This document shows, one piece after another, positions 37 to 4,835 of a stretch of 4,835 nt of DNA; position 1 is the first letter of the stretch, and each line of letters opens with the position of its first letter. This DNA is from a virus (lineage: Duplodnaviria; Heunggongvirae; Uroviricota; Caudoviricetes), in the IMG/VR virus record IMGVR_UViG_2700989363_000007; one strand, written 5' to 3'. A model generated the notes under the pieces. That model was not told the origin of the DNA, did no database searches, and saw only the letters and a list, made by a program, of their open reading frames with translations. The translations under genes were made by a program, and so were the position numbers.

Positions 37-636
37 TCAGAATTTATAACCGACACCCACGATGAAACCGTCAGTGCGCCAGTCACCACTGCCGGAGCCT
101 TCATAAGCAATATCAATGGCCACGGATTCGGTCGGGTTAAACTGCACGCCAGCTCCCCACGCCAGAGACGTGTTGCTGTGGCGATCGTCATCACTTCCGG
201 TCAGCACATCGTGCGTTTTCCCCTTGTTGTCAGTTACGCGGAGATAATCCCCGGAGAACGTCGAAACACGGCTGTAAGCCACACCTGCCATCGCATAAGC
301 ACTGAACCATTCATTCACGCGTACAGATGGCCCCGCCATCATGCTGAACCAGCGGTTACGCACTGAATCTTCATGCCAGCGGGTATCGCTGTAATGCGTT
401 TTTTGCTCATCTTTGGCATTGGCATAACTGAATGACGTCACCAGCCCCAGCGTGTCCGTAAACTCATAACGGTATTTCACGTTAATGCCCTTCAGGTCAT
501 CACTGCCTGGCATATCAGTATGGGTCTGAAGATACCCGGCGCTTAGTGTGGACTGATGCTCTGCTGCGCTCGCTGGCGTACCAGCGGCAACCAGCCAGAC
601 TACTGCGGACAGAATAACAGCACATAATTTACGCAT
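37..636 (-). CDS. lom: Outer membrane protein Lom (Ail/Lom/PagC/OmpX family 8-stranded beta-barrel), phage moron gene
   Basis: 199-aa ORF with stop TGA at 37-39 and ATG at 634-636. N-terminus MRKLCAVILSAVVWLVAAGTPASA/AEHQ is a typical Sec signal peptide with an AxA cleavage motif. The mature protein has alternating hydrophobic/aromatic beta-strand patterning and ends in a C-terminal Phe (GYKF), the outer-membrane beta-barrel signature. Sequence closely resembles lambda Lom as I recall it, and the position immediately downstream of J matches lambda gene order. Confidence 0.93.
   Translation of the reverse strand: MRKLCAVILSAVVWLVAAGTPASAAEHQSTLSAGYLQTHTDMPGSDDLKGINVKYRYEFTDTLGLVTSFSYANAKDEQKTHYSDTRWHEDSVRNRWFSMMAGPSVRVNEWFSAYAMAGVAYSRVSTFSGDYLRVTDNKGKTHDVLTGSDDDRHSNTSLAWGAGVQFNPTESVAIDIAYEGSGSGDWRTDGFIVGVGYKF
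565..636 (-). other. Signal peptide coding region of Lom (residues 1-24, predicted cleavage after ASA)
   Basis: Positively charged N-terminus (MRK), hydrophobic core (LCAVILSAVVWLVAA), then small-residue ASA before AEHQ. Cleavage site is predicted by motif only. Confidence 0.6.
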
Positions 637-641
637 AATTA

Positions 642-647
642 CCTCTC
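642..647 (-). promoter_or_regulatory. Shine-Dalgarno sequence for lom
   Basis: Minus strand reads AGCGAGAGGTAATT-ATG. The GAGAGG purine-rich motif sits 5 nt upstream of the lom ATG. Confidence 0.5.
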
Positions 648-657
648 GCTTTTCTGC

Positions 658-684
658 AATAAAAAAGGCACCATTTCTGGTGCC
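658..684 (-). terminator. Rho-independent terminator downstream of J (minus-strand orientation)
   Basis: Minus-strand sequence GGCACCA-GAAA-TGGTGCC is a perfect 7-bp GC-rich stem (plus 667-673 / 678-684) with a GAAA tetraloop, followed immediately by TTTTTTATT (plus 658-666). It lies 20 nt after the J stop codon. On the plus strand the same hairpin is not followed by a T-run, so it is unidirectional. Confidence 0.72.
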
Positions 685-703
685 CGTATCTGGGTTATAA
701 AAT

Positions 704-3700
704 TCAGCTAATCGTGATGCCTGCAGTGGCTTTCTTCATCACAACAACCAGCAAATCGCTGATACTTGCTGTGGGATACCAGCCATTTACCAGCCATGCT
801 GACACCGAAAACTCCAGTGTCATGTGACCGTGACCGGCAGGCATATCAATAACGCCACTGTAAATCAGCGTATTATCCAGCGCGGTACGGTTATAAATTT
901 CAGCACCGTTTTTCCGCACTATCAGACGGCATGAGGAGTAAATATCAGTATGCTCTCTCTCATGCTTAGCGCCACTGAATGCCACAGCCGGAATAACAAT
1001 TTGCCGGTCAAACGGCTGATCGTCATAAACCCTGACGGTAATGGTCCCTGATGGCCACCGCTCCGGTGCCCGGGAGTCACGGGGGAAAGCTTTGCCCACT
1101 GTTTTAACGAGATCGCCTTCAATCTGGTTCGCGGACAGTTTTCCCAGAACCCGACAGTTCTCGTTAATCGTGACGTTGTTGAGCGTCCCGGAGTTCGCAT
1201 TCACGTTACCGCTGATATCGGCATTTTTCGCCGTCAGCCGCCCGTCCGGTGTCAGGGAAAATGCCGGAGGATTACCGCCGCTGGTAATGGTGGGAGCCGT
1301 CAGGCGTTTCAGGAACACGTCGTTCATGAATATCTGATCGCCCTGACCAACAAACATCGGCTTTGTGTTGCCATTCGCAGGATTAATCATCGCAATCCGG
1401 TCAGCAGCCAGAAGCACCTGACTCTGCATACCTGCTGGCGTATTCTCAATACCGGCTCCGATACCCGCAATATAAAGGCGTCCGTCCTTCATCTGCTGCA
1501 GTTTCACGGCCCACATGCTGTTCAGGTTATTATTTGTATCAACCTGAACTTTCTGTATCTGCTGGATTGCCGCGCTCTGATTTTCCAGTTTCTTATTGAC
1601 GGTCTGTGTGATTTCATTGCTGACATCCGTAATGGACGTCCTGATTTCAGCCAGGTCAGGCGCAAGCTGATCGTTATCAATCTGCGTCCACAGCTCCTGA
1701 GCCAGATGTGTTTTCCCGATTTTTTCTTTAAAAAAATTCAGGTAACCTTCCGCATCATCGCTCGCCCGACCGACGGCCTCCACGAATGCCGATTTGCCAA
1801 CGGTATTCACACTGCGGATATAAAAGTAATAATCATGGCCCGGCCTGATATTGATACTGGCGGCTATCCAGTACATCCCCGTGCCAAGATAGCGGGCTGT
1901 GGTTTCAACCTGCCTGATATCGGCAATCCGCTTTTCCGAAAACCAGAACTCAAACTGTACCGTCGGATCATAAACCGCAAGATGCGGCGTGGCGGTTATC
2001 TGAAAATAGCCCGGCGTCAGCTCAATCTGTGACGGCGCTGCCGGTGCGGCAATCCGGAACGATACCGACGCCGGATCGCCCTGCTGTCCCCATGCATTTA
2101 CTGCCCGGACTGTCAGCCTGTAGTTCCCCAGAGCCAGTTGTGTGAAGCGGTAAGTGGTTTCCGTCGTCCGGGCCGTGCTGACCAGCCGCTCACTGCCGTC
2201 ATCCGCTGCCACGGTCAGGCGAAGCATAAAGCTCACCCCCTTCACCACCTTCGGCGTGTCCCAGCGGGCCAGCACCTGGTATTCCCCGCTGTCTGCGGTG
2301 ACTTCGGCGGTCAGATGCTGCACTGCTGGCGGCGTGACACCATTCACCGTGCCGCTCTGGTTACCGTCAAAGTGCGCCCCGTTATCCACGATGGCTTCTT
2401 TCTCCGGTACATGCTGCACTGCAGTGATGGCATACGTACCGTCGTCGTTCTCACGGATACTCACACAGCGGAACAATCGCTGGTGCAGCGTCGGCAGCTT
2501 CAGCCCCCACACGCTGTACTCGGCAACGCCGTCAGGAACCCGGCTCACTTTCACCTTCACGCCGTCGGTGATGGACTGGACCTCCACGCTGACCGGATTG
2601 CCACTTCCGTCAACCAGGCTTATCAGCGTGGTGCCGGAGGATGGCAGCGTGATTTCACGGTCGAGCGTCAGCGTCCGGGTCTGGCTGTTCACCGCCAGCA
2701 CGCGCCCGCCGGTGCTGATACCGGCATAGTCATCATCGCAGATTTCAATGACATCGCCCGGTACATGGCGAAGCCCTTCGGCACCCACGCTGAAGTCCAC
2801 GGTCTGCGTCTCCAGCAGTTCTGTTTTAATCAGCCACAGCCCGGCGCGGTGCGCCTGCCCCCGACTGGTACAGCCAAACGCATCCATCTTTGTGACGTTA
2901 CGACCATAACGGGCAATGGCCTGCGAGTCCTCCACAAGCTCTGTGGCCGCCTCCCAGCCGTTATCCGGGTCAATCCAGTTCACTTCAACGGCATTATGGC
3001 GGTCTTTCAGGGCGCTGAAGCTGTAGCGGAATGGTGCACCATCATCCGGCATCACCACATTACTGCGGTTATAGGTCCACACCTTATCCGATGGTCGGTC
3101 CTGCACGAACGTCAGCGTCTGCCCGTTCCATACCGGCATACAGCGCATCGCCGAGCAGAAATCACTGAGCACATCCCACGCCTTACGTTGTGTGGTCAGG
3201 TAAGCGTTACAGGTGATGCGCGGCTCCGTACCGCCAAAGCCGTCCGGCACCGACTGGTCGCAATTCTGGCCGATGACATACAGCGCCCATTTGTCCACAT
3301 CCGCCGCACCGAGACGTTTCCCCATGCCGTAGCGCGGGTGGGTCAGCATATCCCACAGACACCAGGCCATGTTGTTGCTGTATGACGGTTTAAACGTCCC
3401 GTCCCAGATACCGCTGTATTGCCGCGTCTGCGGGTTATAATTCGACGGCACCTGCAGAATACGCCCGCGAAGATGATAATTACGGCTCACCTGCTGGCTG
3501 CCGAACTGCTCCGAATCCACCTGTACGCCGACCAGTGCCGTGTTCGGGTAGCACTGTTTCACATCGATGATTTCGGTGTATGACGACCAGAGCGTTTTGT
3601 TCTGCAGCTGGTCTGTGGTGCTGTCCGGCGTCATCCTGCGCATCCGGATGTTGAACGGGCGCGGCGGCAGATTATCCACCACTACCGAGGCCAGATACTG

Positions 3701-4183
3701 CGAGGTGGTTTTGCCCTTAATGGTGATGTCTTTTTCCGTCACCCAGCCACCGTTACGCTGTATCTGAACCAGCAGGCGGACTTCCGACGGATTCCGGTCC
3801 CCCTTTGAAGTGGTTTCCACCAGTGCCTGCACACCGAAGGTAAAGCGCAGACGGTCAATGTTTGCCGACGTGATGGTCCGGGTGATCGGCGTGTCGTATT
3901 TCACTTCCGTGCCCAGTACCGTCTCGGAACCTGATGATTCAAATCCCTCCGGCGGTGTCTGTTCCTGCTCACCTGCCCGGAACACCACCGTGACACCGGA
4001 GATGTTAGTATTCCCCTCACTGTCCAGCACCGGTGTACTGTTCAGCAGCACGCTTTTTAATCCATCCACCGGACCTTCAACCGGCCCTTCGCTGATGGCA
4101 TCGATCACACTCAGCAACTGCGTGGACTTCAGGTTGTCCTTTGCTTCGCGCGGGGTATGCCCCTTACTGCTGCCTTTACCCAT
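704..4183 (-). CDS. J: Tail tip host-specificity protein J (central tail fibre, receptor-recognition protein)
   Basis: 1159-aa ORF with ATG at 4181-4183 and stop TGA at 704-706. N-terminus [41 protein letters not shown] and long internal stretches match lambda gpJ as I recall it. Size (lambda J is 1132 aa) and position between I and lom fit. The C-terminal region diverges (see findings). Confidence 0.96.
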
Positions 4184-4195: not shown

Positions 4196-4205
4196 ATAAA
4201 CGACA

Positions 4206-4225
4206 AAACCGCCCGGAGGCGGTTT
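4206..4225 (-). other. GC-rich stem-loop in the I-J intergenic spacer (terminator-like)
   Basis: Plus 4206-4213 AAACCGCC and 4218-4225 GGCGGTTT are perfect inverted repeats around a 4-nt loop. On the minus strand the stem is followed by TTTTGTCGTTTAT, a U-rich tract. It sits between the I stop (4244-4246) and the J start. Confidence 0.4.
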
Positions 4226-4243: not shown

Positions 4244-4835
4244 TCAACGACCAATCACCACAACCTGACCACCGTCCCCCTCGTCTGCCGTGCTGATCTC
4301 CTGAGAGACAACACGTGACCCCACGCGCATTTCACCGTACAGAACAGGCAGAACATTGCCCTGGGCAACCATGTTGTCCAGTGACGAGAAATACGTGTTC
4401 TGCTTACCGTTATCCGTTGTCTGTGTACGGGGAGTTCTGGGTTTAGGGGCCAACATCTGGGCCACACCGCCAAGCACCATACTGGCACCGAGAGAAAACA
4501 GGATGCCGGTCATACCACCGGCCCCAATGGCTGCCCCCCATGCTGCAAGGGTGGCTCCGGCAGTAAAGAATGATCCGGCAATGGCGGCAGCCCCCAGGAC
4601 AATCTGGAATACACCACCTGACTTGGCCCCGGCGACTCTGGGAACAATATGAATCACAGCGCCGTCAGGCAGAGTCTCATGTAACTGCGCCGTTAACCCG
4701 GACGTGCTGACGTCCCGCCCGGCAATCCGTACCTGATACCAGCCGTCGCTCAGTTTCTGACGAAACGCCGGGAGCTGTGTGGCCAGTGCGCGGATGGCTT
4801 CAGCCCCCGTTTTCACACGAAGGTCGATGCGGCGG
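4244..4835 (-). CDS. I: Tail tip assembly protein I, 5'-truncated by the window edge
   Basis: Stop TGA at 4244-4246. Translation ...RRIDLRVKTGAEAIRALATQLPAFRQKLSDGWYQVRIAGRDV...EGDGGQVVVIGR matches the C-terminal ~195 residues of lambda gpI as I recall it. The reading frame stays open to position 4835 (upstream codons give RRIDLR), so the true start is beyond the window. The M at 4816 in the ORF track is an internal GTG (Val) codon, not the start. Confidence 0.93.
   Translation of the reverse strand, partial: RRIDLRVKTGAEAIRALATQLPAFRQKLSDGWYQVRIAGRDVSTSGLTAQLHETLPDGAVIHIVPRVAGAKSGGVFQIVLGAAAIAGSFFTAGATLAAWGAAIGAGGMTGILFSLGASMVLGGVAQMLAPKPRTPRTQTTDNGKQNTYFSSLDNMVAQGNVLPVLYGEMRVGSRVVSQEISTADEGDGGQVVVIGR

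Follow-up and report, generated by a model that had tools for sequence, protein, structure and literature searches.

The J gene and its domains

How far does the J gene of this virus resemble that of phage lambda, and where do the two part company? The window (the whole stretch of DNA analyzed, 4,835 nucleotides from a virus of the Caudoviricetes; IMG/VR record IMGVR_UViG_2700989363_000007) carries a gene for the tail tip attachment, or central tail fibre, protein J (Table 1). A search of the PDB with this protein matched lambda gpJ (E = 0), and six domains scored above threshold against the gpJ-related Pfam models. Residues 1–815 are ~98% identical to lambda J at the amino acid level. Likeness is then lost sharply from residue ~815 to ~949; beyond that, nucleotide identity climbs back to ~90%, and a second loss follows in the receptor-binding domain (RBD), where nucleotide identity to lambda is about 50% and the nearest solved chain is 9wca "A8 gpJ 713". 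The first of these divergent regions, called the cassette below, takes in the upper part of the beta-prism; residues ~950–1000 of the prism are its conserved right flank. A Pfam scan of J left residues 819–871 without any match, as a gap between Ig_J_second and Phage_Tail_Tip. The opposite strand holds only a 108-aa ORF (1706–2032), unsupported and without a PHROG match, and an Rfam search of the window returned zero matches.

Table 1. Coordinates of J and of the features discussed, in nucleotides of the window
Feature	Residues of J	Position	Strand	Remark
J gene (tail tip attachment / central tail fibre protein)		704..4183	-	ORF, 1159 aa
FNIII-2 domain (Pfam Ig_J_second)	716–818	1730..2038	-	Conserved left flank of cassette
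Upper shaft helices	811–834	1682..1753	-	Homologous to N-terminal part of lambda AHS upper helix (809–840)
Exchangeable cassette (helical shaft + upper beta-prism)	~820–949	1337..1726	-	Long allele
Peptide of the original prediction, THLAQ...MWAV	825–893	1505..1711	-	Exact string match
30 residues without lambda counterpart	837–866	1586..1675	-	Net +28 = four heptads
Predicted long lower helix	841–882	1538..1663	-	AF2 + family-averaged hydrophobic period
Central straight fibre / beta-prism (Pfam Phage_Tail_Tip)	872–1000	1184..1570	-	
Receptor-binding domain (Pfam Ig_GpJ_C)	1029–1159	707..1099	-	Second, independently varying module

A segment longer than its lambda counterpart

The original prediction had singled out a segment of J as rich in Gln, Asn, Glu, and Lys and as the source of most of the length difference from lambda. 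The peptide it quoted is real, although its residue numbers (822–890) are off by three, and the nucleotide span it gave (1530–1738) covers residues 816–885 and is not that of the peptide itself. Gln and Asn are indeed enriched, at 24.6% of the segment vs. 9.4% elsewhere in J (binomial P = 2e-4), whereas Glu and Lys are not (10.1% vs. 8.4% in the rest of J, P = 0.36). The segment does account for the length difference: the J protein of the window exceeds that of lambda (1132 aa) by 27 residues, made up of +28 within residues 833–866 and −1 in the RBD. In the HMMER alignment, residues 801–836 pair with lambda 801–836 and residues 867–913 with lambda 839–885, so that 30 residues (837–866) stand in place of lambda 837–838; residues 869–889, in the C-terminal part of the lower helix, align with lambda 841–861. 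The lambda equivalent is thus shorter by 28 residues, as had been stated, but to call it unrelated in sequence was an overstatement: over the whole cassette, blastp finds 39% identity (E = 1e-31) with a single net 28-aa gap, and only ~30 residues are without a counterpart. A tandem duplication was rejected as the origin of the 28 extra residues, with Tandem Repeats Finder empty over positions 1300–1800 of the window, and no protein-level repeat is evident within them. Our PDB searches found no solved structure that covers residues 837–866.

What occupies this slot in lambda? Residues 809–861 of lambda gpJ form the alpha-helical shaft (AHS), a trimeric helix bundle lying under FNIII-2 and resolved at 2.76 Å (PDB 8XCJ/8XCK and 8IYK; Ge and Wang 2024, PMC11101478). 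Each J subunit contributes one helix, and the three FNIII-2 domains are clamped shut from below (PMC11101478). When the lambda tip binds LamB, the bundle loosens and turns over by ~180 degrees to lie on the prism; residues 841–861 refold into beta strands, such that the tail tip can open (PMC11101478). The segment in the window belongs to the same family and fills the same slot between FNIII-2 and the beta-prism; both of its ends are homologous to those of lambda, the flanking domains are shared at 89–95% nucleotide identity, and the shaft is helical as solved in lambda and as predicted in the window. Unlike that of lambda, which is highly charged (Q+N 3%, D+E 28%, K+R 18%), the shaft in the window is polar and uncharged (Q+N 22%, D+E 15%, K+R 10%), and it is 28 residues longer.

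The segment is probably the AHS of J in a long allelic form, contained within a recombination cassette that has two alleles. Following the second fibronectin-like domain and preceding the beta-prism fibre and receptor-binding tip, this AHS would have 30 residues where lambda has two, giving a lower helix predicted at ~42 rather than ~21 residues. Were all 28 extra residues in a helix, they would add about 4 nm to the fibre (28 × 1.5 Å). By homology with lambda, the shaft may also form a trimeric bundle, clamp the FNIII-2 domains, refold on receptor binding, and influence the reach of the fibre.

Evidence for a helical shaft

On what does the predicted helix rest? AF2 applied to a 126-residue fragment starting at residue 795 placed helices at 811–823, 826–834, and 841–882, followed by the two strands of a beta hairpin (889–897 and 903–912), at low confidence (mean pLDDT 57; ~50–65 in helix 841–882). 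Applied to residues 713–1159, for which the alignment was shallow and made up of near-identical homologues, it gave an unusable model (pLDDT 34). The periodic hydrophobic spacing that had been noticed by eye is present. In the single sequence, hydrophobicity peaks at a period of 3.5 (P ~ 0.02 vs. shuffles), with a weak a/d contrast (P ~ 0.11); averaged over three long-allele sub-families, residues 841–885 have a hydrophobic period of 3.5–3.6 (P ~ 0.003). The conserved hydrophobic positions (844, 847, 851, 858, 862, 866, 873, 876, and 879) are spaced 3-4-7-4-4-7-3-3, a heptad-like core with a 4-4 stutter. No significant heptad signal was found by the periodicity test in residues 819–840. The shaft contains two helix breakers, Gly823 and Pro842, which interrupt the helices, so the likely form is a bundle broken into segments, not a single coiled coil running its full length. 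The earlier suggestion of a coiled coil or extended linker therefore gains support from the position of the trimeric shaft in lambda, the homology of both ends, the predicted helix, and the 3.5–3.6 period.

A flexible and mostly disordered low-complexity linker, a mere tether giving the tip freedom, would account for the high Gln and Asn content, the low AF2 confidence (pLDDT 50–65), the lack of a Pfam model over residues 819–871, and the weak single-sequence a/d test. It sits poorly, however, with a hydrophobic period that is conserved across long-form sub-families 51–75% identical to the window, with the single unbroken 42-residue helix given by AF2, and with the ordered helix bundle seen at 2.76 Å in the homologous region of lambda (PMC11101478). 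The spacer is fixed at exactly 67 residues throughout the divergent long sub-families. Across J-like proteins it takes lengths of 39, 67, 93, 140 ... 1516 residues. Within-allele dN/dS, albeit measured on residues 886–937, is 0.04–0.08, indicating strong constraint. We regard a disordered linker as very unlikely.

The central fibres of F-type pyocins, which contain a coiled coil, offer a second comparison (F2, PDB 25vf, PMC13455828; F7, He et al. 2026 preprint, PMC12874032). Their domain order is J-like, with a three-stranded helical shaft after FNIII and then a beta-prism, and the J protein of the window aligns with the F2 fibre over residues 4–855, with a marginal match at the helix-to-prism junction (E = 0.016). 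The pyocin shaft differs in its much greater length (the coiled coil that turns into prism in F7 has 163 residues), in its sites for attachment of side fibres, and in its repeats of an SxSxxMxxLxS motif. A fold-switch motif of the pyocin type was rejected for the helix in the window, which is predicted at ~42 residues and in which the motif is not enriched: the relaxed pattern, with M free, occurs twice in residues 819–885, where shuffled sequences would give 0.66 (P = 0.15). A co-variation of shaft length with the side tail fibres, which attach to the shaft in the F2 pyocin, was likewise dropped, because the Stf collar of Ur-lambda binds gpV/gpM, not J (PMC12617516).

Might the extra residues instead form added layers of beta-prism in the closed virion, leaving a shaft as short as that of lambda and a longer straight fibre? 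Lambda residues 841–861 take up a helix in one state and a strand in another (PMC11101478), central fibres with closely related sequences are folded by AlphaFold as coiled coil in some cases and as prism in others (PMC12874032), and the cassette includes the upper prism, such that shaft and prism are inherited together. Yet AF2 places a helix at 841–882 and strands only from 889; the power spectrum of residues 841–885 has no alternating signal (0.2 at period 2 vs. 51 at period 3.6); and the strand motif, as noted, is not enriched. This arrangement seems to us rather improbable. In the virion, the 28 extra residues would be helical on this prediction; homologous fibre segments of related systems may fold as coiled coil or as beta-prism (PMC12874032).

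Two discrete alleles of one cassette

Is the segment exchanged separately from the rest of J, as had been proposed? Nucleotide identity to lambda drops sharply at residue ~816 and recovers at ~942, providing the recombination junctions that the original prediction had suggested looking for; at base level, the left junction lies at residues ~820–823 and the right one varies from ~937 to ~949. Among 75 close relatives of J, classed by anchored alignment, the corresponding region is exactly 125 aa (long; residues 816–940 in the window) or exactly 97 aa (short; as in lambda), with no intermediates, and is at least 93% identical to the cassette of the window in the long class and ~35% identical in the short class. 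In these relatives, nucleotide identity between alleles is 0.35–0.7 inside residues ~815–950, recovers at ~950, and outside this region equals the identity within alleles. The Ig_J_second flank is 0.9–0.98 identical in nucleotides, the same between cassette types as within them. Synonymous divergence (dS) between alleles is 2.3, which is saturated, vs. 0.19 in the FNIII-2 flank, where it has this value irrespective of the allele that follows. Many Stx phages (BP-4795, YYZ-2008) carry a third sub-type, which has the length of the long cassette and 68–75% nucleotide identity.

The cassette is a separately exchanged recombination module with two discrete alleles. What is exchanged goes beyond the segment originally flagged, extending over residues ~820–949 and including the top of the beta-prism. 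Could it nonetheless be lambda sequence that drifted by point mutation and small indels in a vertically inherited J, with no module replaced? The 39% identity of the two cassettes does indicate a common ancestor, but drift is contradicted by the restriction of divergence to residues ~820–949 with sharp edges, by a dS of 2.3 in the cassette vs. 0.19 in the flanks, by the absence of intermediates between the two classes among the 75 relatives, and by the finding of both classes on shared flanks and joined to shared RBDs. We give it almost no credence. On our preferred reading, shaft and upper prism would constitute a single cassette whose long and short alleles are both ancient, and homologous recombination in the conserved flanks would move it among J backbones and RBDs.

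Assortment of the cassette with backbones and tips

If the cassette is exchanged, its alleles should not be tied to one type of tip. Of the four main tip types, three are combined with both alleles: RBD cluster 1 has 19 long and 10 short cassettes, cluster 2 has 5 long and 16 short, and cluster 4 has 6 long and 4 short, while cluster 3 has the short allele only, among the sampled loci. Cassette and RBD are associated (chi-square P = 3e-4, the sampled loci being mutually non-independent), and assortment is thus not at full equilibrium. J of phage 2G7b is 95–99% identical to that of the window except in the cassette, and J of VT1-Sakai is 73–79% identical in its body and 95–97% identical from residue 816 on. 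Near-isogenic pairs occur in nature: in 2G7b and PhiR47_1, which have the short allele, and in 640R1 and PhiR55_1, which have the long one, flanks and RBD of the J gene are each about 94–99% identical to those of the window. Congruent trees for cassette type and flanks are contradicted by the identity profiles, the cross-table with RBDs, 2G7b, and VT1-Sakai.

The same long cassette, at 91–95% nucleotide identity, is found in phage 21, VT1-Sakai, cdtI, Stx2 phage 1717, vB_EcoS-640R1, PhiR55_1, and many E. coli prophages, and these relatives of J are annotated as host specificity protein J. They differ from the window in the backbone (VT1-Sakai) or in the RBD; the match to J of the window stops at nucleotide ~3100 of the gene in phage 21 and in the Lambda_ev phages. 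Sharp junctions, deep discrete alleles, and varied backgrounds, the marks of a mosaic module in lambdoid tail genes, are all found here. The long cassette is a well-supported case of the ordinary mosaicism of tail genes, here within a known domain.

Frequency of the long allele and its possible role

How common is the long form? Its core is found in 3545/5426 complete E. coli genomes and the short (lambda) core in 2624/5426; the long allele is very common, commoner in these genomes than the short one, and it is the most frequent form among E. coli prophages. In all, the complete E. coli genomes contain ~10,600 copies of the cassette. The long allele is the common form of a known domain, without a solved structure: all solved structures are of lambda's short shaft, and roughly two in three complete E. 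coli genomes have the long form. The J helical shaft couples receptor binding by the tip to opening of the tail. If four extra heptads alter the length of the fibre or the size of the refolding part, models of infection built on lambda only would miss the commoner design.

One could go further and view the cassette as the conformational trigger of the tail tip, with two ancient alleles held at intermediate frequency by selection rather than chance. The 28 extra residues lie exactly between the static upper helix and the fold-switching lower helix of lambda, and with them the refolding part could grow from ~21 to ~49 residues, which would make the J protein of the window intermediate between the small switch of lambda and the 163-residue coiled-coil-to-prism switch of the F7 pyocin. 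Under such a trigger, the long allele would alter the reach of the tip through the O-antigen/capsule layer, the energy of tail opening, or both, and its effect would be independent of which receptor the tip binds. We consider this extension speculative and unlikely as it stands.

Engineering of J at the tip only, by a C-terminal swap, would likewise neglect a second, independently exchangeable module. Among homologues of the C-terminal 459 residues, only E. coli and Shigella fragments were listed, at 92–97% identity.

The J shaft and its long form

What is the Q/N-rich stretch in the window's J, the lambda-like tail tip (central tail fibre) protein? It is the counterpart of the alpha-helical shaft (AHS) of lambda gpJ, which occupies lambda residues 809-861 between FNIII-2 and the beta-prism (residue numbers below are those of the window's J unless lambda is named). 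In the lambda AHS, three helices bundle together beneath the FNIII domains and anchor these to one another; upon LamB binding it flips about 180 degrees onto the prism, lambda residues 809-840 remodel, residues 841-861 turn into beta strands, the FNIII trimer is freed, and the tube opens (PMC11101478). Probably the segment builds J's trimeric helical shaft, in a long allelic form that would clamp the FNIII-2 trimer and pass receptor binding on to tail opening, as in lambda, and that would make up a single recombination cassette with the upper prism.

The peptide named in the original prediction is present at J residues 825-893 (window 1505-1711, string match); it had been misplaced at window 1530-1738, which spans residues 816-885. 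Aligned with the lambda reference (NC_001416), J is about 98% identical in protein up to residue ~815, after which it carries 21+7 extra residues, with weak similarity to ~940 and high identity at 942-1000. The tip is divergent from lambda and one residue shorter. The 27-residue length difference is therefore +28 in the segment and −1 in the tip, so that the segment does explain most of it, as had been proposed. HMMER comparison with solved structures equates residues 801-836 with lambda 801-836 and residues 867-913 with lambda 839-885, leaving 837-866 in place of lambda 837-838. Because every solved J (8IYK, 8XCJ/8XCK, 9E7M, 9WCA, and 8JVM) has lambda's short shaft, residues 837-866 are without structural precedent.

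The predicted Q/N/E/K richness held for Q+N (24.6% vs. 9.4%, P = 2e-4) and failed for E+K, which showed no enrichment in the segment; the lambda counterpart, very different in composition, is charged and not Q/N-rich. An AF2 model of residues 713-1159 was unusable (pLDDT 34). With an alignment of diverse homologues as input, AF2 on residues 795-920 predicted helices at 811-823, 826-834, and 841-882 and strands at 889-897 and 903-912, at a mean pLDDT of only 57. The predicted lower helix would be about twice the length of lambda's, and the fibre would gain about 4 nm if all 28 added residues were helical; that extra prism layers take the place of the helix in the closed state is unlikely. In the window's sub-type, Pro842 marks where the long helix is predicted to begin; the other long sub-types do not conserve it.

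The periodic, coiled-coil-like hydrophobic spacing that had been predicted is apparent in the lower part of the segment. In the single sequence, the hydrophobic period is 3.5 residues (P ~ 0.02) and the a/d contrast is weak (P = 0.11). Averaged over three long-allele sub-families, a clear peak at 3.5-3.6 is found in residues 841-885 (P = 0.003), while residues 819-840 lack it. Conserved core positions (844, 847, 851, 858, 862, 866, 873, 876, and 879) are heptad-like with a stutter. We read the segment as a putative segmented helical bundle; that so Q/N-rich a stretch is a disordered linker we regard as highly unlikely.

Two alleles of an exchangeable cassette

Has the segment simply drifted from the lambda sequence, or has it been replaced? 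Nucleotide identity to lambda is ~94% up to residue 815, collapses from ~816 to ~940, returns to ~90% at 942-995, and drops again in the tip and lom. We aligned J tails from 80 IMG/VR loci whose FNIII region is at least 95% identical to the window's; 75 full-length tails were classified (73 IMG/VR loci plus the J proteins of the window and lambda). In all 75, the region 816-940 has one of exactly two lengths, 125 residues (long class, at least 93% identical to the window) or 97 (short class, ~35%); an additional tail, from phage vB_EcoS-640R1, is of the long form. Up to ~815 and again from ~950, tails of different class are as alike in nucleotide sequence as tails of the same class; in the stretch between, identity across classes is 0.35-0.7. 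At base level, the left junction lies at residues ~820-823 and the right one varies from ~937 to ~949, which implies several independent events. Between-class dS is 2.3 (saturated; alignable part 886-937) vs. 0.19 in the FNIII flank, and dN/dS within each class is 0.04-0.08; thus, both classes are functional and old. No tandem repeats were found in the cassette. Plain drift is contradicted and retains practically no likelihood.

Does the cassette travel with the receptor-binding tip? Three of the four main receptor-binding-domain clusters pair with both types (long/short 19/10, 5/16, and 6/4), and the remaining one with the short type only (0/11); cassette and tip are not paired at random (chi-square P = 3e-4), yet the pairing is plainly not a strict one. 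Phage 2G7b J is 95-99% identical to the window's except in the cassette, where it is lambda type, whereas VT1-Sakai J is only 73-79% identical in its body and 95-97% identical over residues 816-1159. The nearest solved structure to the window's tip (PDB 9wca/9wcb, "A8 gpJ 713") has a lambda-type shaft. The identity profile, two discrete classes, shared flanks, and mixing with the tip bear out the suggestion of a separately exchanged module. It is suggestive, by analogy with lambda, that the cassette would hold precisely the two elements, the shaft and the prism top, that shift relative to one another in the lambda open state.

Several observations accompany these comparisons. The annotation of VT1-Sakai J (AP000400, 300-3772) splits it into two truncated CDS that overlap, making it a frameshifted pseudogene. 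In two IMG/VR loci (L047 and L062), J relatives have tails of 146-161 aa that break off 31-36 residues after the cassette region begins; truncation or frameshift of a prophage copy is the probable cause. P0121, a 466-aa 50%-identity representative, has an apparent duplication inside the cassette (a QQIQK...MWAVK...GIGAG stretch, then QQIQK again), either natural or an assembly artefact. The window's receptor-binding domain (window 707-1180, J residues ~1001-1159) has ~50% nucleotide identity to lambda and is not lambda's; its type is the commonest among classified relatives (29/75).

Frequency and family range

How common is each allele? The long type (at least 90% identity) occurs in 65 phage records, including VT1-Sakai, cdtI, Stx2 phage 1717, and Ayreon, with phage 21 grouped here through its colinear match; a same-length sub-type (68-75% identity) occurs in 96, mostly Stx phages. 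Lambda's short type occurs in 89, including lambda, 434, HK629/630, and mEp460, as well as Fels-1 and Gifsy-2 at 77-81%. Complete Escherichia coli genomes contain the long core at 6653 sites (3545 genomes) and the short core at 3986 (2624 genomes). The majority allele is that of the window; lambda's is the exceptional one. The original observation is real and its interpretation largely right: the segment is a very widespread allele, passed around by the usual mosaic recombination among lambdoid tail genes, of a domain whose structure has been characterised. New here are the precise cassette map, the two-allele structure, and a majority form without any representative among solved structures.

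A search with residues 716-1000 against 50%-identity representatives returned 683 relatives. Where both flanks (FNIII-2 and prism) could be located, the spacer between them measured 39 residues in the lambda type—the shortest seen—67 in the window type and its sub-types, and 93, 140, 200, 220, 238, 295, 404, 426, 534, 555, 608, and 1516 in more distant J-like proteins. All measured spacers start alike ("KG-I---HLG-EL---ID"), and since their length ranges over 39-1516, variable shaft length is a trait of the family. F-type pyocins are among the long ones: in F2, the extended shaft is three-stranded and bears side fibres (PMC13455828), and in F7 a 163-residue coiled coil turns into beta-prism, driving puncture (PMC12874032). 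The window's helix shows no enrichment of the SxSxxMxxLxS repeat that goes with the F7 fold switch, and it is therefore not classed with that mechanism. An enlarged fold switch, maintained because selection acts on reach or on the energy of triggering, is an unlikely reading of the long cassette.

Gene context

A Pfam search found six gpJ-related domains above threshold in J, and residues 819-871 matched no Pfam model. Of 5426 complete E. coli genomes, 4985 contain DNA related to J-lom, and the top whole-window match is 96.3% identical.

Genes in the window and Pfam domains of J
Feature	Position	Strand	Source
Tail gene I, 3' part	window 4244-4816	minus	
J, 1159 aa	window 704-4183	minus	
lom	window 37-636	minus	
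FNIII-A	J		Pfam
Phage-tail_3	J		Pfam
Ig_J	J 610-714		Pfam
Ig_J_second	J 716-818		Pfam
Phage_Tail_Tip	J 872-1000		Pfam
Ig_GpJ_C, C-terminal receptor-binding domain	J 1029-1159		Pfam

No Rfam families were found within the window, and an antisense ORF at window 1706-2032 lacked support. A perfect 8-bp inverted repeat (AAACCGCC / GGCGGTTT), read from the sequence and absent from the terminator scan output, lies in the I-J spacer (window ~4201-4222) directly upstream of the J ribosome-binding site. An intrinsic-terminator-like hairpin (window 666-685, minus strand; GGGCACC-AGAAA-TGGTGCCT, then TTTTTATT) lies in the gap that separates the J stop codon (704) from the start of lom (636). lom matches the PHROG Lom family over its full length; its nucleotide identity to lambda lom is ~40-65% over most of the gene and ~90% at the 3' end (window ~1-130), a step that marks another mosaic junction.
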